From the UHGV virus genome UHGV-1944538: a stretch of DNA of 11,431 nucleotides. One strand, given 5' to 3'. The DNA is from a virus. Under the pieces are notes generated by a model. The model had not been told where the DNA came from. It saw only the letters and a program-made list of their open reading frames with translations, and searched no databases. Shown piece after piece: positions 36 through 11,431 of the stretch (position 1 is its first letter; each line of letters begins with the position of its first letter). Both the position numbers and the translations under genes were made by a program.

Positions 36-68
36 ATGGCTAAAGTTCTGGTGCTTTTACATAGCTAA
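36..68 (+). pseudogene. wrbA: 5' stub of wrbA left at attL: native start codon and first 22 nt of wrbA fused to element DNA, reading MAKVLVLLHS-stop
   Basis: 36-57 atggctaaagttctggtgcttt equals the start of the wrbA ORF whose continuation (ttattattccatgtacgg...) is found at 11321 onward; after position 57 the sequence diverges and an in-frame TAA follows at 66-68. Confidence 0.7.
51..57. repeat. attL core GTGCTTT (shared between wrbA and element)
   Basis: Left junction matches native wrbA through position 57; identical 7-mer at the right junction. Confidence 0.6.
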
Positions 69-368
69 ACACGTACATTCAACTACCTGTTAAAAACAGG
101 ACAATATCAGGTGAATCTCTATGCAATTTAAAGGCATTTCCCCAAGTATCTAAGCAGTTTTACACAGATTCTATGCAGTATCGGTATAGTCCCTTTTTAT
201 CCTAACTTATTGAAATATATAGAGAATCTGTGAAGTCTCTTTTCAGGGTAAACTGTATCGTGTTAGTCGTCCCTCTCTCGACTCCTAGAAAAGTGCTATA
301 TACAGGACTATATGACGCTATTCATGCAGTTGGTCACATGGTGTAACTATCAAACCCTTAACGATTTC

Positions 369-476
369 CTACGTGAAAGTTAGGAGTTGATGGTTATAGT
401 TCCTTCGTAGTTCCTCTTAAAAAATCACTTACAGACATCTTAATCTCTATACAGATTTCACGTAGAACACGCTTAA
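369..476 (+). repeat. Diverged third copy of the inverted-repeat element: arms CTACGTGAAA (369-378) and TTTCACGTAG (456-465), followed by CACGCTTAA (468-476)
   Basis: Arms and 3' tail identical to the 70-bp repeats at 6514 and 8659, but the spacer between arms is 77 nt instead of 38. Confidence 0.5.
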
Positions 477-993
477 TGCGTAAAAGAGTCATTATGTTAA
501 AAACGCACTGTATACGTATCAGTACTGATTTATAAGGGTTTTGTTTATTTGAAGATAAGAGGCTATACAGCACCTTGAGAGCATGTCTTGTAAGTCATTG
601 ACATATAAGGTCACAGAAGTTTGTGTCTGTTACAGAGAAAACTGGACAGGACTTCACAGAGCTATAAAATGTTACAGCTATTGATAGGTGAAATCTTCTT
701 GATAGATGCTTTGAAGTGTGGTGAAGGTTTCTTGATGTGGAGTTAACAGATGCTATGAAGAAAGTCAATAGTTGGTTATAGATATTTTAACTGCTTTTGC
801 AAAGGGGGTGCTATATCGTGAATCTGGGGTACTTAACAGCCATCAATTGAGTGTAGATATTTTTTAAGATTATCGGTGAAGGGGAATGTAGAGGGAGTGC
901 TACGATTTTTATAAAAAAATTAGAAGATGAAAAATCACTGTATAAACTTTAATCAGACCTATCGACAAGTTTATGTCAGGTCTTTATTAACTA

Positions 994-1518
994 TCAGCTA
1001 AAATTCCTGTATCCATATTTACCATGCAATTCCAGTGATGCAGCATCATAGGCTTTTGCAGCTTCTTCTGCTGTATTAAACTGACCCAGATAATGAGATT
1101 TTCCATTACAGCGTATTGTAGCCCAGAACCCCTTGTTATCCACTCTTGGGTGTACTCCCTTGTAACCTGATTTTGTTTTCTTTCTGGGTATCATGTTTGC
1201 CTGATTCTGCTCTTTGGTAACCTCTCGAAGATTGCTAATAGCATTATTTAGCGGGTCACCATCTATATGGTCAATCCATAGTTTAGCTTGTTTACCATGA
1301 TATAGATAGAAAATAACCTGATGCACCTTAAGTATTCTGAACTTACCATTAATCCGACAACCAAAAGCCAGATATTGTCTTGGTTTAGGATTTACAAGTG
1401 AACCCTCGATTTTTACACCTTTTCTAAATAATGTTCCAGATTCAAAATCTGCTGTAATATTTTCATTGATGTATCTTATAACTTCTTCAGGCCATGCCTT
1501 GGTATACCTAGTCACCAT
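994..1518 (-). CDS. HNH-AP2 family homing endonuclease (N-terminal NUMOD4/HNH_3-like domain plus C-terminal AP2 DNA-binding domain)
   Basis: 174-aa ORF. HNH-type motif WIDHIDGDPLNNAISNLREVTKEQN; AP2-type C-terminus GYKGVHPRVDNKGFWATIRCNGKSHYLGQFNTAEEAAKAYDAASLELHGKYGYRNF. AAGGA about 7 nt upstream of ATG on the minus strand. Confidence 0.85.
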   Translation of the reverse strand: MVTRYTKAWPEEVIRYINENITADFESGTLFRKGVKIEGSLVNPKPRQYLAFGCRINGKFRILKVHQVIFYLYHGKQAKLWIDHIDGDPLNNAISNLREVTKEQNQANMIPRKKTKSGYKGVHPRVDNKGFWATIRCNGKSHYLGQFNTAEEAAKAYDAASLELHGKYGYRNFS

Positions 1519-1576
1519 AATATTCCTTATTTCAATTAACTTGTTGAGGTAATACTACCAAGAAACTTCATATCAT

Positions 1577-1604
1577 ATTTTAGATAATGATTGATATACA
1601 TCAA
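1577..1604 (-). promoter_or_regulatory. Candidate sigma70-type promoter for the HNH-AP2 gene (minus strand TTGATG-N16-TAAAAT)
   Basis: Reverse complement of 1599-1604 is TTGATG and of 1577-1582 is TAAAAT, 16-nt spacer, about 60 nt upstream of the start at 1518. Confidence 0.3.
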
Positions 1605-2369
1605 AAAACTATTAAGTTCTCGGAAGAAGACTATATAGATTAATGATGCTCTTATTGTAGGAGCATCTATTCCCAACAAGGGAACTACACAGAAACTAGA
1701 GAATATGCTCTGTAACACCTTCACAGTATCTATATCAGGTCAGATTCAGAGGTCTTGATAGAATCTTCAAAGGTACTTGACAGATAACTATGAAGTTGCT
1801 AGGAAGGGATGTTTAACGGGAGGAAAGATACGATATAACCCGAAGGGAGAGTATCATCTTAACAATTATTCTTAAGAGATACCTTGAAAAGACACTTAAC
1901 AGAACCACCAAGAAGAGAGGGAACGATAAGACCCAGAGGTAGTGACCTGTTAAACAGTTCGTTTCAAAGCTCTTAAGAGTCTGTTAAGTAGGGTCATGTG
2001 ACAATCTTACCATTTTGTCAATGCTTTTGTCTTTGACCTAAATCAATAAAATGTATCGTTTGATATGTTTTTAAACAAAATAGTTAAAAATCTTTTTAGA
2101 GGTGCGCTTCGCTTGTGTCACCAATATCATTCTTCCCTGTCTAAGAGGGAAGTTACAGGGCATTTCAAAGCCCTCAATAGGCAAACCGAGGAATACGGAA
2201 AACCGAGGGAAGAAAACTATTGTGATTACCTTGAACAAGGTCTGTAAAGGTCGTTTAAGAGGTCGGTTAAGAAAGGAGCTTCCCTCTCTGGGGTTATCGC
2301 TCTTCTCTCGATTAGTGGATTGATTAAGAAGACCTCTGAAGTTTCTCTGTGAAGGTGCTGAACAGCTAT

Positions 2370-2423
2370 TATATATGGCTAATTACAACTTATTGAAAAA
2401 TAAACATTTTTAGAAATTACTGT
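2370..2423 (+). repeat. 54-bp direct repeat, copy A (TATATATGG..ATTACAACTTATTGAAAAATAA..TTTTAGAAATTACTGT)
   Basis: Aligns without gaps to 2465-2518 at a constant 95-bp offset with about 5 mismatches. Confidence 0.7.
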
Positions 2424-2464
2424 TAAGGTTGCAGAGTTGTCTGTGAAGAGACTTGTCAGTTCTC

Positions 2465-2518
2465 TATATATGGGTGATTACAACTTATTGAAAAATAAGA
2501 ACTTTTAGAAATTACTGT
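2465..2518 (+). repeat. 54-bp direct repeat, copy B
   Basis: See copy A; both lie in the ORF-poor 1725-3111 region. Confidence 0.7.
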
Positions 2519-2827
2519 CAGAGAGGTGAATACTTGATAGATACAGCTTTCCGGTTCTGTCAAGCTATTTTTTAATAGATAGCACAAAGTGCTAAAGACA
2601 CCCCTATACCATCTCGTACAGGGGGTTTTGGAGGGATTAACGGGGGTCTGTATGGTCGTTATCCTTAAGGTCAAGCGTCCATGTACGACCGAACAGTCTA
2701 AAGACAACAAGCACCCTGACGAGGACGTAGCGAAGTAACAGACCTGCGAACAGACCCACACCTCCACCAGCCCACAAATCAGGTGACCCCAATTCCTGAG
2801 GGAGATTTACCATTAAATTTCCTTGTA

Positions 2828-2925
2828 AGACGCTCTCAATCGCATTCTGACACAAAAAAGTACCTGACCTTATAGTTGACCTGAAGAGGACGTTTAACTC
2901 GTTACAGAGCGATTGAAGAGGTCTG
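2828..2925 (+). repeat. Inverted-repeat-bounded unit I (98 bp): 5' block AGACGCTCTCAATCGCATTCT..CAAAAAA, variable middle, 3' block ..CTCGTTACAGAGCGATTGAAGAGGTCTG
   Basis: 5' and 3' blocks are conserved with unit II at 4468-4588; CTCAATCGC (2835-2843) is the reverse complement of GCGATTGAG-type sequence at 2909-2917, with an extended imperfect inverted repeat of about 16 bp. Confidence 0.7.
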
Positions 2926-3031
2926 CGTGCAATGCAATAACCATGTGACCAAATACATGGCCACGCCTTTATATTTTACTCTCCCCATAGGACCATTATA
3001 CCACAGATGTTAATAAAATGTTAAAAAATAC

Positions 3032-3060
3032 TTGACATTAGCCTTTGAAACTGCTAGTAT
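3032..3060 (+). promoter_or_regulatory. Candidate sigma70-type promoter TTGACA-N17-TAGTAT upstream of the 3112 operon
   Basis: TTGACA at 3032-3037, 17-nt spacer, TAGTAT at 3055-3060, followed by TGTATATATGAGTTAACAGA; about 50 nt upstream of ATG 3112. Confidence 0.45.
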
Positions 3061-3111
3061 TGTATATATGAGTTAACAGAATAATAACATCTTATGAGGG
3101 TCAGAATATGA

Positions 3112-3666
3112 ATGAGAGATGCAGAATTTAGAGCGATGCTTCAAGCATCAAGGGAACGTAACAGACACAACGGTTACAGCTACACAGACACCCCCACCAG
3201 CTACGAAGTCCCAGCCTTTACCAAATCCGAACGTAAAAACATTGAAGCGGTCATTCGTAGCATTACGCCACGAGACAGATATATGCCAACCAGAAAGAGC
3301 ACGAAGAATAGCTTGAAACCTTTCCTGATGAGCTTTGATTCTTACGAGCAATTACCATCAAAAATTGAAGATGTAATTATCGGTACTTGTCGCAGTCTTG
3401 GAAGGGATAATTATCACCGGAAAGTTTTCTATTTACTGCGAAGTCTTGATGAGATTAGTTCAGGCGCAATAACAAATTATCTTCAGCGACAAGCAACCAG
3501 ACTTAGCTACGAATTACCGTCTGATGGGTATTGCGCTAATTTAAGTACCATTTGCAGTAAAGTTATCGAGACAATCAATCATCATGTTGAGGTTGGTAAT
3601 ATCAACCTTACGACAAGTGAGCCAGACTTTGAATTTGACGTATACGCACAAGCAGAGGAATTTTAA
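3112..3666 (+). CDS. Hypothetical protein, 184 aa, acidic C-terminus; first gene of a four-gene coupled operon
   Basis: Long ORF downstream of the promoter-like site; GAGGG upstream of the start; stop 3664-3666 sits 1 nt before the next start codon. Confidence 0.7.
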   Translation: MRDAEFRAMLQASRERNRHNGYSYTDTPTSYEVPAFTKSERKNIEAVIRSITPRDRYMPTRKSTKNSLKPFLMSFDSYEQLPSKIEDVIIGTCRSLGRDNYHRKVFYLLRSLDEISSGAITNYLQRQATRLSYELPSDGYCANLSTICSKVIETINHHVEVGNINLTTSEPDFEFDVYAQAEEF

Positions 3667-3667
3667 A

Positions 3668-3955
3668 ATGAAAAACAAACACACTTTAACCCGTATTACA
3701 AAGACAGCCTTTGACGAACTTAACCGAATCAAAAACATTACAGGTCTGCCACACTCAGCAGTGATGAAGCTTGCAATTAACCGTGATATTAACGAACAGG
3801 ATTTGCTTAATAGTCGCTTAGAGGCTGCAAGACACCATATCAGGATTAAGCAAGATGACCTTGATAGTCTGAAATCTTTAAATGTTTTTGGACTGGATTT
3901 AGCAAGGTTACTAAGTATCAAAATTCACAAGTTAGCGGATAAATTGGGGGTTTAA
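3668..3955 (+). CDS. Hypothetical small protein, 95 aa (start placed at the ATG with an RBS, not at the track's upstream ATG 3584)
   Basis: GAGGA at 3655-3659, 8 nt before ATG 3668; the track start at 3584 lies inside the preceding gene. Confidence 0.65.
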   Translation: MKNKHTLTRITKTAFDELNRIKNITGLPHSAVMKLAINRDINEQDLLNSRLEAARHHIRIKQDDLDSLKSLNVFGLDLARLLSIKIHKLADKLGV

Positions 3956-4170
3956 TGCTATGCGTTACCTTTGAATATCACACGGATAAAATGATTCGCT
4001 ACATCTCCGACCTCCTGATTGAAGGAAACGGATTCGGTGACATCCACAACTCAAAAGATATTTTCATTAAAGCCATTGGCCCAAATGAAGTACTGAAAGC
4101 AGCAGTCAAGCCAGAATGGTTTGAGCGTCACAAGATTGAATTAGGTTATTGGGGTGAGGAGGTTTTATGA
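3955..4170 (+). CDS. Hypothetical small protein, 71 aa
   Basis: Start overlaps the upstream stop (TAATG at 3953-3957); GGGGG just upstream. Confidence 0.6.
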   Translation: MLCVTFEYHTDKMIRYISDLLIEGNGFGDIHNSKDIFIKAIGPNEVLKAAVKPEWFERHKIELGYWGEEVL

Positions 4171-4454
4171 AACCTTGGCATGAAGATGTTAGACGATATT
4201 TTACAGAACACCTTATCTATGATGAATCCAGTGATTCCCTGTGCTGGTCTGATGGAGAGTCAGTCACGATAAATACCGACGACTACGGCAACAAAACATT
4301 TAATATAGGCCGATATACTTTCTACGTGAAATATGTTGTCTGGTTCCTTTATCATGGCTATCAATCCAATAAGCAAATTATCCATCTAAATGGTAACAGA
4401 GCCGATACCAGACCAAAAAATCTTATGCAAGTCCGAGACTTTAAGAGAAATTAG
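4167..4454 (+). CDS. Truncated HNH_3-like protein, 95 aa, paralogous to the N-terminal half of the HNH-AP2 endonuclease but lacking the AP2 domain
   Basis: ATGA overlap with the upstream stop; GAGGAGG RBS. WHEDVRRYFTEHLIYDESSDSLCWS and YVVWFLYHGYQSNKQIIHLNGNRADTRPKNL parallel WPEEVIRYINENITADFESGTLFRK and HQVIFYLYHGKQAKLWIDHIDGDPLNNAISNL in the 994-1518 product. Confidence 0.65.
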   Translation: MKPWHEDVRRYFTEHLIYDESSDSLCWSDGESVTINTDDYGNKTFNIGRYTFYVKYVVWFLYHGYQSNKQIIHLNGNRADTRPKNLMQVRDFKRN

Positions 4455-4467
4455 AAAAACAGCTTCT

Positions 4468-4588
4468 CAGACGCTCTCAATCGCATTCTAACGCAAAAAA
4501 CTATCTTATTTTAGGGTGGGTAATACCACTGTACAGACTACCCCTGAAAAAGACTGTTTAGCTCGTTACAGAGCGATTGAGGAGGTCT
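4468..4588 (+). repeat. Inverted-repeat-bounded unit II (121 bp), homolog of unit I with a longer variable middle
   Basis: 5' block 4468-4500 and 3' block 4551-4588 nearly identical to unit I; it fills the gap between the 4454 stop and the RBS of the 4611 gene. Confidence 0.7.
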
Positions 4589-4610
4589 GGTAAAAAGGAG
4601 ATTTTAAGAA

Positions 4611-4940
4611 ATGAGAGAATTAAACTTCCCGCTACAGATTTTCGTTGATAGCGACACTGCTATGATGGTGCAAAGCTTCACTGATGCAGGTATTAGCATT
4701 GACTTTGACAGGCTGTTAAAGCTAATGGCTGAGAACTCAGAAGCAATTGAAGATTTTATTCAGGAAATTGAAACTGGTGACCCACGTTTTATGTTTCCCG
4801 TTACCGACTCAAACATGAAGCGCCTTATTATTGAGGAAACTAACCGATACAGCGTTAGCCCTGAAAAATATCTCAAGGCGGCTATAGTAATTTTGTACGC
4901 TGACAATGTTTTGGTTACGGATTCGAAGGTGGTGCATTAA
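4611..4940 (+). CDS. Hypothetical protein, 109 aa, acidic
   Basis: AAGGAG at 4595-4600 upstream of ATG 4611; clean ORF. Confidence 0.65.
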   Translation: MRELNFPLQIFVDSDTAMMVQSFTDAGISIDFDRLLKLMAENSEAIEDFIQEIETGDPRFMFPVTDSNMKRLIIEETNRYSVSPEKYLKAAIVILYADNVLVTDSKVVH

Positions 4941-5017
4941 TGGGCTTAATAATTGCTTGGACAGCTTTGGGTTTATTTGTTGGTTGCTGGGTAGGTAACA
5001 CAGTAAATAAGAATTGA
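4940..5017 (+). CDS. Candidate 25-aa single-helix hydrophobic peptide (MGLIIAWTALGLFVGCWVGNTVNKN), translationally coupled to the upstream gene
   Basis: ATG overlaps the upstream TAA; AAGGTGG at 4926-4932, 7 nt before the ATG. Not in the ORF track because of its size. Confidence 0.35.
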   Translation: MGLIIAWTALGLFVGCWVGNTVNKN

Positions 5018-5041
5018 TGTTACCAATCTGTTAAAAAGCTG

Positions 5042-5070
5042 TTGACAAATAACCTTGAGCATGACATAAT
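5042..5070 (+). promoter_or_regulatory. Candidate sigma70-type promoter TTGACA-N17-CATAAT
   Basis: TTGACA 5042-5047, 17-nt spacer, CATAAT 5065-5070, followed by TGTATATATAGG as at the 3032 promoter. Confidence 0.45.
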
Positions 5071-5076
5071 TGTATA

Positions 5077-5268
5077 TATAGGAAGAGCAATTTTTCCTAA
5101 AATCATATTTTCAATAATCCGATGGATGGATATTCTGAGTTGGAAAGGTGCAATGCTTTTCGTCATGGCCTTTCAGTTTAGTCTGAGAGGCTATCTCAAA
5201 AAGTCTTTGTTCATTCATTATTGAACCCTTACAGCTTTGCCCTAATCATGAGTTAGGGCGTTTTCTTT
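5077..5268 (+). ncRNA. Candidate small RNA of about 190 nt between promoter 5042-5070 and the intrinsic terminator at 5239-5268; could instead encode a small hydrophobic peptide
   Basis: Promoter and terminator bracket a region with no RBS-preceded ORF; the track ORF 5042-5224 begins at the -35 hexamer itself. An internal 23-codon frame (5152-5223, MLFVMAFQFSLRGYLKKSLFIHY) lacks a good RBS. Confidence 0.3.
5239..5268 (+). terminator. Rho-independent terminator: stem GCCCTAA/TTAGGGC, 7-nt loop, then GTTTTCTTT
   Basis: Perfect 7-bp stem at 5239-5245 and 5253-5259 followed by a T-rich tract. Confidence 0.5.
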
Positions 5269-5337
5269 AAGAGTTTTAAACAGAGCTTTTAAAGAAAGTT
5301 TTTCCTGAAACTTCGTTAACGTTATAAGCAAACCTCC

Positions 5338-5370
5338 AAAGCCCTTCACAGAAACGTTTAGGGCTTTTCT
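5338..5370 (+). terminator. Second, weaker terminator-like hairpin: AAGCCCT ... AGGGCTT then TTCTT
   Basis: 7-bp stem with a 14-nt loop and a T-rich tail; shares the GCCCT..TTAGGGC..TTT pattern with the 5239 hairpin. Confidence 0.3.
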
Positions 5371-5468
5371 TAATAGAGCATCTTTAATAAATCGTTAAGT
5401 CATCTTCTAAGTGTATTGGCGTTGAAGGTGCTCTATTAAGAAATAAACCACACTTAGAGGAAGTTATA

Positions 5469-6179
5469 ATGACAAACGATTTATATATTAACGGTAAAAA
5501 GGTTGATAGCTTCGGTGACTGGTCGCCACAGACTGAACATCCAGCTATCGCTATTCAGCGTCAAGAGCATGACAAGCGCATTGAGCTTGAGCAAGAGCTA
5601 AAGATGTCACCAAAAACAACCATCTTTGTGTCTCCTGAGCCTCAAGAGATGCCTGATATTTGCAAGAGTGAAGCATTATTTAATCTTGAGCGTGAATATT
5701 ACCCACTGCTAAAAGAACAGCGCCTTAGATTAGATGACGCTTACGACAATGTGAAGAACTTTGAAGAGACTGAAAAGCCAACTGATTTTGATATTGAAGT
5801 GGAAATTAGACAAAACCCATTCGTATATTACTCAGTTGAGGATAATGATGGTTTTGGTACAGCAAGAGAGAATATCTCAAAAGTTCTTCAAAACATCCCT
5901 GAAGGATTCCGTTTAATTGATGTCAGACCAGCTTCACGCGGTACAGGTTCATATATTTTACTGTCTGATAAAACAGATGAAGAGATTTGTCAGTTAGCTG
6001 AAAAGAATCTACTTGAGCGTCATAGCAAAAAATTAAACAGATTTAAGCAAGAGCTTGCTAACCAGCTTAGAGCTATGAAGCAACTAATCAGTGACTATGA
6101 AACGCAGAAGAAGGTTGCTATGCAAGCCGATATTGAGCAGCTTACGAAGATTTCTCAGAAATATAGCAAGGCACTTTAA
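5469..6179 (+). CDS. Hypothetical protein, 236 aa, acidic with a predicted coiled-coil C-terminal third
   Basis: GAGGAAG 6 nt upstream of the ATG; long clean ORF; the C-terminus has a heptad-like charged pattern. Confidence 0.7.
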   Translation: MTNDLYINGKKVDSFGDWSPQTEHPAIAIQRQEHDKRIELEQELKMSPKTTIFVSPEPQEMPDICKSEALFNLEREYYPLLKEQRLRLDDAYDNVKNFEETEKPTDFDIEVEIRQNPFVYYSVEDNDGFGTARENISKVLQNIPEGFRLIDVRPASRGTGSYILLSDKTDEEICQLAEKNLLERHSKKLNRFKQELANQLRAMKQLISDYETQKKVAMQADIEQLTKISQKYSKAL

Positions 6180-6201
6180 CTATGAATTAAAGAGGTGATT
6201 A

Positions 6202-6411
6202 ATGTTTGAAGAACGTTTAGAGACTATTCGGTCTGTTTGTGAAAACTTAAAGTTACAAAATAAGCCAACCTTAAGAATTAAAAACAAACGTCAAGTTATC
6301 ACCTCACACAAACCAAAAACACGCAAGATTCCAAAATGGTGTATTGACCGTATCCCTTCTGATGCTCAAATCATAGGTGAAACGGAATTACATTATCTTG
6401 TCAGGCATTAA
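6202..6411 (+). CDS. Hypothetical small basic protein, 69 aa
   Basis: AAGAGGTGA RBS 5 nt upstream; Lys/Arg-rich; followed by a terminator-like hairpin. Confidence 0.6.
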   Translation: MFEERLETIRSVCENLKLQNKPTLRIKNKRQVITSHKPKTRKIPKWCIDRIPSDAQIIGETELHYLVRH

Positions 6412-6463
6412 AAAAAAAGAATTGGTTGGGTGTATGAGATAGGTTCTATCGAATCTATAACAC

Positions 6464-6506
6464 GGGGAGAGATTATCGATATTATTCGGTAGTTTCTCCC
6501 TTTTTT
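6464..6506 (+). terminator. Terminator-like hairpin (GGGAGA ... TCTCCC) followed by TTTTTT
   Basis: 6-bp G/C-rich stem at 6465-6470 and 6495-6500 with a long loop containing ATCGAT, then T6 at 6501-6506, immediately before repeat copy 1. Confidence 0.45.
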
Positions 6507-6513
6507 GTATGTG

Positions 6514-6583
6514 TGCTACGTGAAATCTTCTGAACAGATATACCCACCAAAAATTATTTTTTACGTAGCTCACGCTTAACAGA
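6514..6583 (+). repeat. 70-bp direct repeat, copy 1, containing an 11-bp inverted repeat (GCTACGTGAAA ... TTTTACGTAGC, one mismatch) and a CACGCTTAACAGA tail; lies immediately upstream of the 6599 gene
   Basis: 67 of 70 identity with 8659-8728. Confidence 0.8.
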
Positions 6584-6598
6584 GGTGAAATATGAACA

Positions 6599-8647
6599 AT
6601 GGCACAATTTAAAGTTGATAGTTTTATCGTTGAGCTAGGCTTCAGCGAGAACGTTATTAAGGGCTTGCAAAGAGTTGAAAAGGCAGCTTTGCAGTCAGCA
6701 CAAAGAATTGAACGTAATTTGAATAGAGCGTTTAAGGTCGATACCAAGCAATTTGACAGCAATCTGACAAGTTCTTTGAAGTCAATGGAAGGAAAAATTA
6801 ATAAGACCTTTGACCGTCTGGAAGCTAGAGCAAAAAATACTAAAGCTTTCCAGTTTACCACCAGATTTAATGACACTGTTAATCCTCCAAAACAACCGAG
6901 ACAGCCACGAATTAGCGGAAACAGAGCAATCACAGCAGCTTATTCAGCTAATATGACCAAGCTGAAAGGTCTTAACCCAATTGTCGAGAAATACATTAAG
7001 AGCCAGTTTTACGCATTAAGTAGTAAAGCTGGTCAGATGGATAACACCAAGTTTAATGAAGCCCTTGCTAAACTAAATTCAAGTGTAAGAGAAGCAATCA
7101 CTAAAGCCAGAGGTCATACATCCACCAGCATTAACGGTGACAGAGCAGCTAATAGTCTTGATAGTTTGAGTTCAGCAGCAGTTAAAACAGCAGGTGCATT
7201 TATCAGCTTTCAAGCTGTACTATCCGCTTATCAGCGAGTAATGGAAGTTGGCCTTCAACGTGCATCATCGGAAAGAAGTATTGATTTCGTATTTGATAAA
7301 GATGCAGGCCAAGTAAAAGAGTTCACAAAGTCATTAGCTCAAACAACGGGTTTAGATATCGCTGAACTGCAATCACAGTTTGCTGGTTTTGGTGCTTCAG
7401 CTAAAGAGTCTATGGGTATTCAAGGTTCTGAAGAACTTTTTAAAAGTATGATTGGCTATTCTCGTTTAATGGGTCGAAGTGAAGAAGAGATTAAGCGAGC
7501 ACTGACAGCATTATCACAGATGGCTGGTAAGGGTCAGATTATGGCTGAAGAGCTTAAGGGGCAATTAGCTGAAGCTGTTCCTGGTATGGTTCAGGTATTC
7601 GCTAAAGCAACCGGAAAGACTGAACAGGAATTATTTGATGCCATGAAGAAGGGGGCTTTAAAATCTGCCGATACTCTTCAGAAGGTCACTCAGGAACTGA
7701 ATAGACAAATCACCGCTAAAGGTGGCTGGAAAGCTATTTCAGAAAGTACACAGGCACAGCTAGGGAACCTGAAAAACTCTTGGAATACCACGCTTGATAG
7801 TATCTTCAGAGGTTCTGAAAATGGTCTGCAAGATTTCACACGAAGCCTAACAACGCTTTTAAACGCTCTTGGTGGAAGTGGTAAAACATTAGGTGAAAGT
7901 TTTGGTAGCTTGATGAGCGATATGTCACATGGTGTCGATAACCTGACTGATATTAGTTACAGGGTAAGGGCGTTCTTTGACGAGGTGACATTGGCTTATC
8001 GTGGTTTAACCGATGAACAAAAGAAAGTTGTTGATGCTTTAGGTTCTGGCTTGATTAATAGTTTAAAAGTCTTGGCTGGTGTTATTGCTGTGAATAAAGT
8101 TGTTGGTGTAACCAGAAGTATTTACGGGCTTATGACTGCTATCACAAGATTAGGTCAGGTCGCTGATACTACAGTGGATAACGTGAATAGAAAGAACGGG
8201 AAACCATCAAGGTTTAATCTTGGGAATATGCTATTAGCTGGTAGTGCTATCTATGCAGGTTATGAGAGATTAGCTTCTACGCCTGAACGAATGGAAGCAC
8301 AAGCTAAATTACCAGAGCTGGCTAAAGAGTCTGGACTTAAGCCAGTATTTACTATGGACGATGTGAAAGGTTGGTTTAATAGTGCAGCTATGAATCTTGC
8401 TAACTTCCAGCATCCAGAATTAATCACCATGAGACAAGATGCGGCATTAACGAATACGGATATCCAAAGCCTGAGAGATGAAATTAGTGCTTTGAGCAAA
8501 CGTATTCAGGAGCCTGTGAAAGTTTCACTTGGTGGTGAAGTTGCCATTAAACCAGATGAAACCAGCTTTATGACCTTTAGCAGTAATATCTACGACCAAT
8601 ACGCAGAAGCTACGCTATTAAGTTCATCATTCCCAGAAGATGATTGA
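6599..8647 (+). CDS. 682-aa protein with a tape-measure-type domain (central GKGQIMAEELKGQLAEAVPGMVQVFAKATGKTEQELFDAMKKGALKSADTLQKVTQEL segment) and a coiled-coil-rich N-terminus
   Basis: Long ORF; the central segment resembles, from memory, the conserved domain of siphovirus/lambdoid tape measure proteins. GAGGTG lies 11 nt upstream of the ATG. Domain assignment not verified by search. Confidence 0.75.
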   Translation: MAQFKVDSFIVELGFSENVIKGLQRVEKAALQSAQRIERNLNRAFKVDTKQFDSNLTSSLKSMEGKINKTFDRLEARAKNTKAFQFTTRFNDTVNPPKQPRQPRISGNRAITAAYSANMTKLKGLNPIVEKYIKSQFYALSSKAGQMDNTKFNEALAKLNSSVREAITKARGHTSTSINGDRAANSLDSLSSAAVKTAGAFISFQAVLSAYQRVMEVGLQRASSERSIDFVFDKDAGQVKEFTKSLAQTTGLDIAELQSQFAGFGASAKESMGIQGSEELFKSMIGYSRLMGRSEEEIKRALTALSQMAGKGQIMAEELKGQLAEAVPGMVQVFAKATGKTEQELFDAMKKGALKSADTLQKVTQELNRQITAKGGWKAISESTQAQLGNLKNSWNTTLDSIFRGSENGLQDFTRSLTTLLNALGGSGKTLGESFGSLMSDMSHGVDNLTDISYRVRAFFDEVTLAYRGLTDEQKKVVDALGSGLINSLKVLAGVIAVNKVVGVTRSIYGLMTAITRLGQVADTTVDNVNRKNGKPSRFNLGNMLLAGSAIYAGYERLASTPERMEAQAKLPELAKESGLKPVFTMDDVKGWFNSAAMNLANFQHPELITMRQDAALTNTDIQSLRDEISALSKRIQEPVKVSLGGEVAIKPDETSFMTFSSNIYDQYAEATLLSSSFPEDD

Positions 8648-8658
8648 TAATAGTCGAA

Positions 8659-8728
8659 TGCTACGTGAAATCTCCTGAACGGATATACCCACCAAAAATT
8701 ATTTTTCACGTAGCTCACGCTTAACAGA
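8659..8728 (+). repeat. 70-bp direct repeat, copy 2 (perfect 11-bp inverted arms GCTACGTGAAA / TTTCACGTAGC), immediately after the 6599-8647 gene and upstream of the 8805 gene
   Basis: Near-identical to 6514-6583; the two copies bracket the tape-measure-like gene. Confidence 0.8.
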
Positions 8729-8804
8729 TAAAACACTTATATATCAAAGGCTTGGTTAAAAATGATTAAAATACACTAAGCCTTTGAAATCAAAGGAGAA
8801 TTTA

Positions 8805-9578
8805 ATGATTTACACTAATCAGCTTCGTTACACTGGCAAAGATGGCGTTTACTTCCACTTAAGAGATAATGTAGATGCCTTCTTAACTTTATCAGCAACT
8901 GAAAATATGGAATTTGACAGCCCTATGCAGGTAACTACACAGAACATGCAATCAGGGCAAACCGTCACAGATAATGTGCAAAGAGCACCCAGAACAATCA
9001 CTATTAGCGGTGTCGTTGTAGTTGGCTATGAAGGAAGCTTATTATTAACTCGTCAGGGTCAATTAGTAGAAAACTTCATTGACACTCTTGAAAGCTGGAG
9101 AGACCAGAAGCAAATTATTTCGGTCATCTGTAAAGACGGTATCAAAATTGATGATTCCATTATTACGAGTTTTAAAGCCTCTAAAGATGTTGGTATTTCA
9201 AATGGTCTAAGAGTCCAGCTAACTTTTCAGGAAATTAACTTTAAAGCTATTGTGGGTCAGACTGATATTTCATCTGCGACTGGAAAAGCCGCGACTACTA
9301 ATGATGGTGGTGCTACCAGTAAAAAGAATGCGGGTAACGTGACTACTGAACGCAATAACGCACCTATGTTGCTGTGTCAGGAACTGTACAGCTACTCAGC
9401 ATCTGAGCTATCTGATGAAGCGTTAAAAGCCCGTAGTAATTGCTCTAAAAATGTCACGGTGAAAGATGGTGTAAGCACCTTCTCAGATGCCGCTAATGCG
9501 CAAGCTTCAAAAGTGCTTAAGTCGGGTAATGCTTTACGGAAGTTTAGTGTGAATCCGAATAAGAAGGGCACTTATTGA
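8805..9578 (+). CDS. Hypothetical protein, 257 aa, with a Ser/Thr/Asn/Gly-rich linker ([30 protein letters not shown]); positionally a possible tail-module partner of the upstream gene
   Basis: AGGAG at 8794-8798, 6 nt before ATG 8805; the track's earlier start at 8784 is a TTG without an RBS. No confident domain assignment. Confidence 0.65.
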
Positions 9579-9594
9579 TTGGTAACAATACCAA
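9577..9594. other. Hairpin (ATTGGTA-ACAA-TACCAAT) in the 19-bp gap between convergent genes; possible bidirectional terminator
   Basis: Perfect 7-bp inverted repeat between the stop codons at 9576-9578 (plus) and 9598-9600 (minus); A/T-rich, so weak. Confidence 0.25.
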
Positions 9595-9597
9595 TTC

Positions 9598-11241
9598 CTA
9601 AGCGTCCACCTCTTCCATATCACCAGCAGGATAAATCCTTGTTACTGGTTCACCAAAAATAAGCATATCATCTAGTGACTGCATCTCATCGGTTGCTTCT
9701 TCAAGCGTTAAGGTGTGGTCATCTTTACCATCAAGAGGGAAACCACGAATCATATTTCCATTGTGAAGATATATATCAACCAGCTTTTCATTACCAGAAA
9801 CAACAATCTCTTTCACCAGACGCTTAATGATAATCTGGGCTTCAGTTCTCCCCTCTACAGACTCCATATCAAGACCGCTTAAATCCAAGCTTGATACAGA
9901 TTTTACCCTCGCCTTTTCTCGTGATAACTGAACTATCAGTTCATCTTTTTCTTCCTGCTTAATCCGTAGTGCTTCTTGAATCTGAGTGATGTTAGGAAGC
10001 TGTATCAGCGTCTCAGTGAGTTTTTCCAGTTCACTATCAACGGTGTTTAGTCTGCGTTGTAGCTCATCTAATTTAGCTGTGTCAGTAGCTTCATCGTGTA
10101 GCTGTGACAGTTTGCTGAACAGACGACTACAAAGCTGTGTATCAAGTAACTTTCTGGACACTGTACCGTAGCTACAACGGGACTCCTTATTACCATTGCA
10201 ACGGTAAGTACCTTGATAAACGGGTTTACGTATCCCTGTAGGAGTCATTACAAGCCCACACTTACAACGGATAAGCCCCTTCAGTATGTTCACATATAGC
10301 CAGTGTTCACCGCTGGATGTTTTCCCCTTCCCTGTTTCCTCTAACAGTTGCTGTACAGCGTAAAACTTAGAGTCTGTGACAATCTGAGGATAGAACCCTT
10401 CAATTTCTTCACGTAACACTGTTTTACGGTCTTCTGTAGAAATCTTAGCGGGAAGGTAACCTAATACACTTCGTGAAGTCAGGATGTGTTTAACGCTTAA
10501 TGCTGACCAGTTGCCATCCGGTTTCTTAGTCTTGGATATTCTGACCTTACGCTGATTAATGGTCGGGTAACCTTGTTCGTTTAGCCATTTGCAGATAGCA
10601 AACATCGACATACCAGAAAGACGCTTGTCATAGATGATATTCACCAGTGACGCTTTATCTTCATCAACGATGTAGTGTGAACCGTCTTCTGATAGCTCTA
10701 ACCATCCGGGGGCTTGCTTACCCATAGGCTTCTTAAGTTCTCTTGCAAGCTGTGTTTTATGGTTCCAGACCTGAGCTATACGCTTTTGCTTAACAAGAGA
10801 TTCTTGGTGTGCTCGCTCAGCTATGATGATGTGCTTAATCAACTTCACAGGGTCTGTTAATGCTGATTTGTCGTAGAGTTCACCATCTCCCAGAGTCAGT
10901 ATAGAGACCCCTTTCCTCAGTATCTGCCTGACATCATCTATAGCTGTGTCGATATCAGCCCTACTGAAGCGGTCAAAGTTCTCTACAACAATCAAGGAAC
11001 CTTCTGGAATAGCCTCAGACATAACATTTTCAAACATACGTCTGAAGTCAGAACCTTGATTCTTATGTTGCTGGTGAAAACCAGATTTACCCTTATCAAC
11101 ATATCTGTGAGCAGGAAGAAGGTAATAATCGTTTTTGTGCTTAGAGTAGAAAGCATCAATGAGGTTTGTTTGCCGTCTTAAGGAGTCTCCTGAGTCTTGC
11201 TCTTTAGTACTCCACCTGATGTATGTCACTAGCAGCTTCAT
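9598..11241 (-). CDS. int: Large serine recombinase (serine integrase) of the element
   Basis: 547 aa. N-terminal resolvase-type motif YIRWSTKEQ with a candidate nucleophile Ser; Cys-rich zinc-ribbon-like segment [11 protein letters not shown]...[14 protein letters not shown]; C-terminal coiled coil. Located next to attR and read inward. Confidence 0.9.
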
Positions 11242-11292
11242 ATCTTCGGACTATGCTTATCTAAGTGGTTCATTGAACAGGAGAACAATGAT

Positions 11293-11431
11293 ATGAGTGT
11301 TAAGGCAAGAATACTAGTGCTTTATTATTCCATGTACGGACATATTGAAACGATGGCACGCGCAGTTGCTGAGGGTGCAAGCAAAGTCGATGGCGCAGAA
11401 GTTGTCGTTAAGCGTGTACCGGAAACCATGC
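11293..11431 (+). CDS. wrbA: wrbA, NAD(P)H:quinone oxidoreductase, 5' part with element-supplied start ([46 protein letters not shown]); partial, runs off the window
   Basis: From 11317 the sequence and translation match the WrbA N-terminus as I remember it (native [43 protein letters not shown]); AGGAG at 11279-11283 upstream of the new ATG. Confidence 0.85.
11317..11323. repeat. attR core GTGCTTT
   Basis: Identical to 51-57; wrbA identity resumes exactly here. Confidence 0.6.

Follow-up and report, generated by a model that had tools for sequence, protein, structure and literature searches.

The subject of this analysis is a genetic island that occupies positions 58-11316 of an 11,431 nt stretch of the virus genome UHGV-1944538 (hereafter the window; all positions are window positions unless a phage is named) and interrupts the Escherichia coli gene wrbA. 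The island is complete and probably active, it belongs to an integrative family that appears to be undescribed, and we consider it likely that it is a satellite of the strictly lytic Felix O1-type myophages, that is, Felixounavirus and its relatives, with helper dependence as a putative trait. Two properties expected of a satellite are apparent. The island carries no capsid, terminase, sheath, or tube genes, and so lacks the full gene set for a virion and its replication, and it displays specific links to one helper lineage, in gene homology, in homology to the phage terminal repeat, in GC content, and in host range.

One of these links is provided by two adjacent genes, which are the only phage-structural genes of the island and are syntenic with gp73-gp74 of Felixounavirus:

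6599..8647, plus strand: tape measure protein, 682 aa (Pfam TMP_3, PHROG 4036)
8805..9578, plus strand: tail tube initiator, 257 aa, with a Dit-like fold

The tape measure protein is collinear with its phage homologue (Felixounavirus gp73, or gp017 of phage Bas63, 742 aa), and although the two are only 27-33% identical overall, the island protein keeps the first 72 aa, the central residues 187-509, and the C-terminal LLSSSxPE motif of the phage protein. Several members of the family show 97-100% identity to the phage over the final 30 nt of the tape measure gene; in Bas63, the last 25 residues of this protein contact the hub (PMC12609058). The tape measures of the family are 679-716 aa long, always shorter than the 742 aa of the phage protein, and are 47-96% identical to one another. 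The tube initiator is closer to its phage counterpart. It matches gp018 of Bas63 (PDB 9ndy_A, E 4e-122) and shows about 75% protein identity to the protein encoded immediately after the tape measure in 253 records of Felix O1-type phages. The tube-like domain is 93% identical in protein to gp74 of phage wV8, and the DNA is 94.9% identical over 505 nt (8834-9338), which points, therefore, to recent recombination with a phage genome. The similarity to the phage ends together with this domain, at the same boundary in all 13 members examined: across the family, the N-terminal domain is 76-94% identical to the phage sequence, and the C-terminal baseplate extension of about 75 aa is 32-47% identical (43% in the window copy), with 44-80% identity between the extensions of other members and that of the window. 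The corresponding extension of the Bas63 tube initiator runs through the baseplate beside the spacer proteins (PMC12609058). One member, L014, encodes a tube initiator that is nearest to those of the Suspvirus-group phages (72% identity), so different island subtypes may track different phage genera. These comparisons show that the tape measure and the tube initiator genes descend from, and still recombine with, the phage genes.

Beyond the tail gene pair, a tblastn search of wV8 with all open reading frames of the island yielded only a weak match for an HNH nuclease gene, and no DNA match to positions 58-6600 was detected in any phage record. The genes located upstream of the tape measure gene were considered as candidates for a tail chaperone and rejected, given the lack of similarity to gp71/gp72 of wV8. 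The 301 matching phage records are lytic myophages of 78-98 kb, and the annotated features of wV8 include no integrase; the GC content of wV8 (38.9%) is close to that of the island (39.0%).

The second link involves non-coding DNA. The Felixounavirus Pr103Blw packages its genome from direct terminal repeats of 581 bp (PMC8303462). The terminal repeats map to positions 14351 to ~14953 of wV8, within a gene-free gap of 1.6 kb, and several independent phage records begin at that same left repeat end. The parts of the island that are relevant in this context are the following:

91..950, no strand: non-coding region A, where conservation within the family is highest (85-100% identity), with the inverted pair CTACGTGAAA (369) / TTTCACGTAG (456)
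742..945, plus strand: block i, homologous to the right edge of the direct terminal repeat in Felixounavirus (nhmmer E 3e-6)
1872..1991, plus strand: block ii, homologous to an internal segment of that repeat (GGGAACGATAAGA..AGAGGTAGTGACC; nhmmer E values of 8e-5 in the window and 2e-5 in the member L015)

An nhmmer search with a region A profile retrieved wV8 14888-15059 with an E value of 3e-6 and a score of 19.1 bits, to be compared with 5.1 bits for the best of 31 decoys, which were one phage genome in reverse and 30 with local shuffling. When the two sequences are aligned, the right end of the phage repeat as annotated, GGGCTACC|AAGCAG, coincides with window 833|834, GGGGTACT|TAACAG, which falls within 811-840, the sole fully invariant 30 nt of region A. 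The reverse search, with a profile of the phage gap against the islands, recovered block i in every island type (E 3e-9 for L014, 3e-6 for L005), and block i is retained even where the remainder of region A is replaced; block ii emerged from this reverse search as well. Whether the island captures the phage terminase via block i is, in our estimate, evenly poised, the role of the blocks being putative. A palindrome of wV8, TTACGTAA, occurs in only three copies in 88 kb, two of which lie 14 and 36 nt outside the left repeat boundary (14314-14346), and from this placement it appears to be a candidate terminase recognition site; it loosely resembles an island motif, GCTACGT(G)AAA.

The architecture of the insertion itself is defined by the following elements:

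36..57, plus strand: displaced native start of wrbA (MAKVLVL), attL core included, from the match of the joined flanks
58..90, no strand: integrase-specific left arm, one half of attP, present only in members with the wrbA-type recombinase
9598..11241, minus strand: large serine recombinase (integrase), 547 aa, with Resolvase, Recombinase, and Zn_ribbon_recom domains
11293..11431, plus strand: rebuilt wrbA, with an island ribosome-binding site, ATG, and eight codons fused in frame to the native gene (attR core 11317-11323)

The window starts within the wrbA leader, and 36-57, ATGGCTAAAGTTCTGGTGCTTT, encodes MAKVLVL, after which the frame meets a stop inside the foreign DNA; wrbA resumes from 11317 (GTGCTTTATTATTCC... 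/ GTGCTTTATTATTCCATGTACGG..., translated as VLYYSMYGH...). The sequence-only reading of this DNA had held that a complete AT-rich element of about 11.26 kb, bounded by GTGCTTT and with a serine integrase adjoining attR, sits inside wrbA with both junctions present, and had named beforehand, as the result that would overturn this claim, the failure of the joined flanks to match an uninterrupted wrbA. The in silico join of 1-57 with 11324-11431 gives 165 nt that match annotated wrbA over 100% of their length, and an unbroken wrbA match was obtained in 5129 of the 5426 complete E. coli genomes, with identity up to 99.4%; the claim is thereby borne out, together with the particulars of the insert, which spans 11,259 bp, has a GC content of 39.0% compared to 47% in the short flanks, and is bounded by GTGCTTT at 51-57 (attL core) and 11317-11323 (attR core). 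The bare GTGCTTT is not rarer than expected by chance in the window (3 copies vs 2.1 expected); its meaning is positional because it lies exactly at both junctions set by the empty site. A short identical core and an uninterrupted target site are among the traits expected of an element integrated by a large serine recombinase, and the comparison with the empty site indicates that the GTGCTTT core, within wrbA codons 6-8, is the place where the large serine recombinase inserted the island.

The earlier view that the insert splits wrbA holds as well, but it overlooked that the 5' end of the gene is restored by the island. The right end of the island supplies AGGAG-N9-ATG, with the start codon at 11293 in frame with wrbA: the final 30 nt of the island read AGGAGAACAATGAT-ATG-AGT-GTT-AAG-GCA-AGA-ATA-CTA and continue in frame into GTGCTTTATTAT... 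The automatic annotation of strain ES5 and gene calls elsewhere adopt this start, which yields a WrbA protein of 201 aa. The native wrbA promoter is now 11 kb away from the rebuilt gene. As read from the sequence, then, the open reading frame is kept open rather than simply truncated, and rebuilding the start would be a way to occupy a hotspot within a coding sequence without destroying the gene. In the genome 02E060 (L005, 14118-14300, corresponding to window 11317-11365), a lambdoid prophage follows the island, about 35 bp deeper into wrbA, past ...GGACATATTGAAAC; the two elements in tandem therefore use distinct sites within one hotspot.

The recombinase matches PF00239, PF07508, and PF13408, contains the motif YIRWSTKEQ at residues 7-15, and has its start codon 76 nt from the attR core. 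Wherever the identical wrbA-type recombinase protein was found, it lies beside a hybrid wrbA. The similarity between island types starts at 91 and stops at 9578, and therefore, the site-specific module consists of 9598-11316 plus 58-90, which are contiguous in the circle. At 84-108, where the integrase-specific arm meets the shared backbone, there is an inverted repeat, CCTGTT-AAAA-ACAGG, that is conserved in wrbA-type and yecE-type islands. Exact matches to the predicted 34 nt attP junction (11316 to 58) were identified in three metagenome contigs. One of these, ERZ506742 NODE_633, is 11,233 nt long, consists wholly of island sequence, and has a terminal overlap of 55 nt, which therefore indicates a circular molecule of 11,178 bp; its recombinase is 99.5% identical to that of the window, and its tape measure only 50% identical. 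Judging from these contigs, the attP junction of the recombinase has formed in nature, a conclusion that would apply to a tandem array and a circle alike. The contig OOBX01000469.1 (L015; 23,009 nt, of which 6 kb were examined) is twice the length of the island and includes an internal attP junction, and may represent a tandem or a concatemer.

The island is far from unique. The comparison of its whole interior with E. coli genomes, another check suggested by the sequence-only reading, gave matches in 549 of the 5426 complete genomes, the best being ES5 (91.5% identity over 96% of the length), where the island likewise sits in wrbA. Region A (860 nt) is present in 536 of these genomes, in 596 places and up to three per genome, and all 596 copies are chromosomal; thus counted, members of the family, 10.7-11.4 kb in size, are carried by about 10% of complete E. 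coli genomes. The gene order is common to the family: region A, an accessory slot, a second non-coding region (B), seven small genes, the tape measure, the tube initiator, and the recombinase. At least three unrelated serine recombinases (28-35% identical) occur in this last position, and the integration sites differ by type, being the 5' end of wrbA, a site upstream of tonB, and the inside of yecE. That islands of the tonB type would rebuild tonB was considered and rejected, given that these islands lie upstream of an intact tonB. The identical wrbA-type recombinase is paired with differing cargo backbones (tape measures of 679, 682, or 691 aa); the family is a mosaic in which the recombinase module is exchanged among several types.

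Homologues of two of the small core proteins, of 236 and 184 aa, fall into 3097 and 1088 clusters, respectively, and the source names of the clusters are E. coli, Shigella, Salmonella, Citrobacter, and E. albertii; these hosts coincide with those of the Felix O1-type phages. The exact tape measure and recombinase proteins of the window occur in the assembly GCA_958338135.1. In the literature that we covered, which is not complete and so could have missed an earlier description, there is no account of this island family or of any satellite that exploits Felixounavirus or Ounavirinae, and a survey of E. coli defense islands does not mention these loci.

If the island is indeed a satellite, its life cycle might be envisaged as follows. 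Phage infection would trigger excision, with an excision factor that may be encoded by the phage, as in the PLE satellites of Vibrio cholerae. The excised circle would then replicate from an origin somewhere in its 2 kb of conserved non-coding sequence, the terminase of the phage would recognize the repeat-like blocks and package island DNA, and the tape measure and tube initiator of the island would replace those of the phage, giving rise to chimeric tails. With the shorter tape measure (682 vs 742 aa), the tail would be roughly 5-9 nm shorter than that of the phage, and the phage yield would probably be reduced by competition for tail parts and, perhaps, by the HNH nucleases. Assembly of chimeric tails appears to us somewhat more plausible than its absence. 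Eight island lengths (11.18-11.26 kb each, from the window and L014) amount to 89.4-90.1 kb, to be compared with 88.4 kb for the packaged genome of the putative helper, a fit that could reflect the packaging of concatemers in full-size heads or a coincidence.

Several observations weigh against this scenario. The link to the helper phage comes, throughout, from sequence comparison. Searches of the profile libraries recognized no replication initiator, excision factor, tail chaperone, capsid-size factor, or terminase subunit among the island proteins. Blocks i and ii flank the accessory slot and occur in the order opposite to that in the phage, which is not what a straightforward imitation of the end of the phage genome would show; instead of packaging, their function might lie in replication or regulation. 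The motif CTACGTGAAA, which is repeated in the island, has no copy in wV8. The circular contigs, too, could derive from tandem chromosomal copies, and a search of IMG/VR recovered only integrated copies, with the attP junction absent there.

Other readings account for parts of the same evidence. The island could be a defense island, mobile by virtue of its recombinase, that spreads by other means than phage packaging, with its divergent tape measure and altered tube initiator serving as dominant-negative decoys of Felix O1-type tail assembly and so shielding the bacterial clone. The diversification of the tape measure within the family (47-96% identity) and the tube initiator extension that is unlike that of the phage would fit an arms race, genes for packaging or replication were not recognized, and interference with tail assembly is a known defense strategy, according to the abstracts of two reports (PMC11364771, PMC10884400). 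However, this reading, which we regard as unlikely, leaves unexplained the two conserved non-coding blocks that resemble the terminal repeat, the circular 11.2 kb form, and the narrow size range of 10.7-11.4 kb, and no PADLOC model matched the island beyond a generic homing endonuclease. Furthermore, defense is compatible with satellite transfer, PLEs being known both to interfere with the phage and to be transferred by it.

A still less probable alternative is that the island is moved by conjugation or generalized transduction, or is inherited only vertically, and that the tail genes are mere passengers acquired by recombination with infecting phages. The strong mosaicism of the family, the presence of homing-type HNH genes that promote exchange, and the 95% identical stretch that reflects recent recombination with phage DNA all accord with such a history; the profile libraries, however, revealed no relaxase, oriT-associated, or conjugation gene, no copy is plasmid-borne, and all members examined have both tail genes in intact form and show one and the same domain-specific pattern of conservation, which argues for selection on function. 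That the island is a cryptic prophage, left over from the decay of a temperate phage related to Felix O1, seems to us highly improbable, notwithstanding the two adjacent phage structural genes next to an integrase. In the tblastn search against wV8, hits were confined to the two tail genes and, with a weak match, an HNH gene, so a Felixounavirus prophage or its remnant was rejected as an identity: only 2-3 of about 140 phage genes have homologues in the island. Against decay stand also the same compact architecture in 10% of genomes, at several sites and with different recombinases, the intact reading frames, and the existence of a circular form; the 301 matching phage records, moreover, are lytic, with no integrase annotated in wV8. 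A satellite of Felix O1-type phages remains, accordingly, the reading that we favor.

Among the known satellites, the closest parallel is with the PLEs, which are integrated by a serine recombinase, parasitize the lytic myophage ICP1, and encode their own tape measure, chaperone, and baseplate hub (PMC11838301). The chimeric tails that they assemble are 10 nm shorter than those of the phage, and the authors of that work describe the PLEs as the first satellite family known to do so (PMC11838301). The island shares with the PLEs of V. cholerae the large serine recombinase and the partnership, putative in the case of the island, with a strictly lytic myophage, as well as a tape measure of its own that is shorter than that of the phage and is accompanied by an adjacent baseplate or tube component (PMC11838301). 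Nuclease genes and long non-coding regions are further common traits. Both elements are small compared to the phage, 11 kb vs 88 kb for the island and 18 kb vs about 125 kb for the PLEs. The differences are, nevertheless, substantial. The PLEs reside in V. cholerae and exploit ICP1, whereas the island is flanked by E. coli wrbA and its phage homologues are in Felixounavirus; the tube initiator domain of the island is 93% identical in protein to that of the phage, whereas PLE tail proteins are 19-41% identical to those of ICP1; and, unlike a PLE, the island sits in, and rebuilds, the 5' end of a protein-coding gene and swaps its recombinase module within the family. No equivalent of RepA, NixI, TcaP, CapR, LidI, SviR, or the chaperone was assigned by Pfam, PHROG, or NCBIfam, and Rfam detected no RNA, the PLE sequences themselves not having been compared directly. 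As far as can be tested, then, the island is not a PLE by descent.

According to the abstract of their description, the PICMIs of marine Vibrionaceae are gene-poor, minimalist satellites of virulent vibriophages that are packaged as concatemers (PMC10803314). Going by the same abstract, they resemble the island in being small, in exploiting virulent phages (putatively, in the case of the island), and in lacking recognizable capsid-remodeling genes, and differ in host, recombinase type, and helper family; tail genes are not mentioned in the abstract (PMC10803314). Packaging of concatemers, as stated there for PICMIs, would also fit an island that is about 1/8 the size of the helper genome.

The P4-like satellites, PICIs, and cf-PICIs of Enterobacteria share with the island the host species, a similar size as integrative islands, and helper dependence, which is putative for the island. 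Of their characteristic features (a tyrosine integrase, AlpA, a primase or replicase, Sid/Psu, and capsid genes), none was found with four profile libraries. The Stx-converting lambdoid prophages, which are temperate and about 60 kb in size, use the same wrbA hotspot but a different attachment site within the gene. The sequence-only reading had set the element apart from these phages as far smaller and not lambdoid in content, and both assessments agree with our results: at 11,259 bp, the island yielded no lambdoid genes in Pfam and PHROG searches, and no lambdoid regulatory, replication, lysis, or morphogenesis modules were detected. The identities of P4-like element, PICI, and lambdoid prophage were all rejected, the island lacking the features that define them.

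The remainder of the island, 31% of which is non-coding, comprises the accessory slot, region B, a series of small genes, and candidate regulatory elements:

994..1518, minus strand: HNH-AP2 homing-type endonuclease, in the variable accessory slot (~951-1665)
2370..2558, no strand: a 95 nt unit present twice in tandem, within non-coding region B (1666-2636)
2637..2813, minus strand: conserved 58 aa protein with one hydrophobic helix, frame intact in 8 members
2995..3060, no strand: divergent sigma-70-like promoter pair, consensus matches only
3112..3666, plus strand: core protein, 184 aa
3668..3955, plus strand: core protein, 95 aa
3955..4170, plus strand: core protein, 71 aa
4167..4454, plus strand: HNH_3 endonuclease, 95 aa
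4611..4940, plus strand: core protein, 109 aa
5469..6179, plus strand: core protein, 236 aa, a long coiled coil plus a small alpha/beta domain
6202..6411, plus strand: core protein, 69 aa, just upstream of the tape measure gene
6514..6583, plus strand: 70 nt element, copy 1, CTACGTGAAA-N33-TTTTACGTAG, directly upstream of the tape measure gene
8659..8728, plus strand: 70 nt element, copy 2, 96% identical to copy 1, upstream of the tube initiator gene

The 70 nt repeat that precedes each of the two tail genes contains a 53 nt element, CTACGTGAAA-N33-TTT(T/C)ACGTAG, with a spacer that is fixed across the family and invariant arms; the CTACGTGAAA 10-mer is enriched in the island as a whole (7 copies vs 0.7 expected). 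Given these invariant arms, the simplest interpretation is a putative protein-binding site that would co-regulate both tail genes. The possibility that CTACGTGAAA is a phage promoter was rejected, given that wV8 has no copy and that the motif only loosely resembles the TTACGTAA pair at the left repeat boundary of the phage. The promoter pair consists of TTAACA-18-TATAAT on the minus strand and TTGACA-17-TAGTAT on the plus strand, both identified as consensus matches. A direct repeat of about 100 nt (82-94% identical) is located at 2822-2925 and 4463-4589, upstream of the genes for the 184 aa and 109 aa proteins, and may be a duplicated regulatory region. The 95 nt tandem unit in region B possibly represents an origin or a set of binding sites. 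Region A was also considered as a structured RNA, and this was rejected, the folding z-scores of 0.25 and -0.13 on the two strands giving no fold signal; no RNA gene was detected in the window by Rfam (E up to 1) or ARAGORN.

Searches for hidden genes in the non-coding regions detected codon periodicity only at 2626-2835, the segment that includes the gene for the 58 aa protein. In this gene, the insertions and deletions across members are in frame, the variable sites are distributed as 21/5/32 by codon position, and the gene was called in L017; from this pattern of variation, it appears to be a real gene. For the small core proteins, no assignment was obtained in Pfam, PHROGs, NCBIfam, or PADLOC, and a sequence search of the PDB came up empty. 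The 236 aa protein, of which the family has two alleles only about 24% identical, is labeled 'transposase' in public annotations of hundreds of genomes, a label for which no support was obtained from any profile library or fold search.

The accessory slot is occupied elsewhere in the family by an adenine methyltransferase, a small recombinase, or nothing. The HNH-AP2 protein encoded there in the window gave a 34% match in wV8 (tblastn). The HNH_3 gene is shared at 96-100% DNA identity by backbones whose similarity elsewhere is 65-85%, and it is absent from L006, where another open reading frame takes its place; by this distribution, it behaves like a free-standing homing endonuclease gene that moves among islands. 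Recent import of the HNH genes from phages was considered and rejected, with the best phage match being 40% identical for one of them and none found for the other.

Felix O1-type phages are classic Salmonella typing phages and have been widely isolated as candidates for therapy and biocontrol against E. coli O157, Salmonella, and Shigella, and remodeling of the phage tail by a satellite has so far been shown only for the PLEs of Vibrio. The broader proposition that follows from our analysis, to which we give even weight for and against, is that these islands constitute, in E. coli, Salmonella, Shigella, and Citrobacter, the first recognized family of satellites that exploit strictly lytic phages; that about 10% of E. 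coli genomes carry a hijacker of Felix O1-type phages that offers a copy of the terminal-repeat cut region to the phage terminase and swaps in its own tail parts to form chimeric tails; and that tail remodeling by satellites has evolved independently and is common. If this is the case, an island that is present in one of every ten E. coli genomes and parasitizes or blocks these phages would alter their host range and the outcomes of therapy, and could carry DNA between strains via the lysates of lytic phages. The island would also provide a tractable E. coli model for satellite-driven tail remodeling and for the capture, by a satellite, of terminase packaging from direct terminal repeats.

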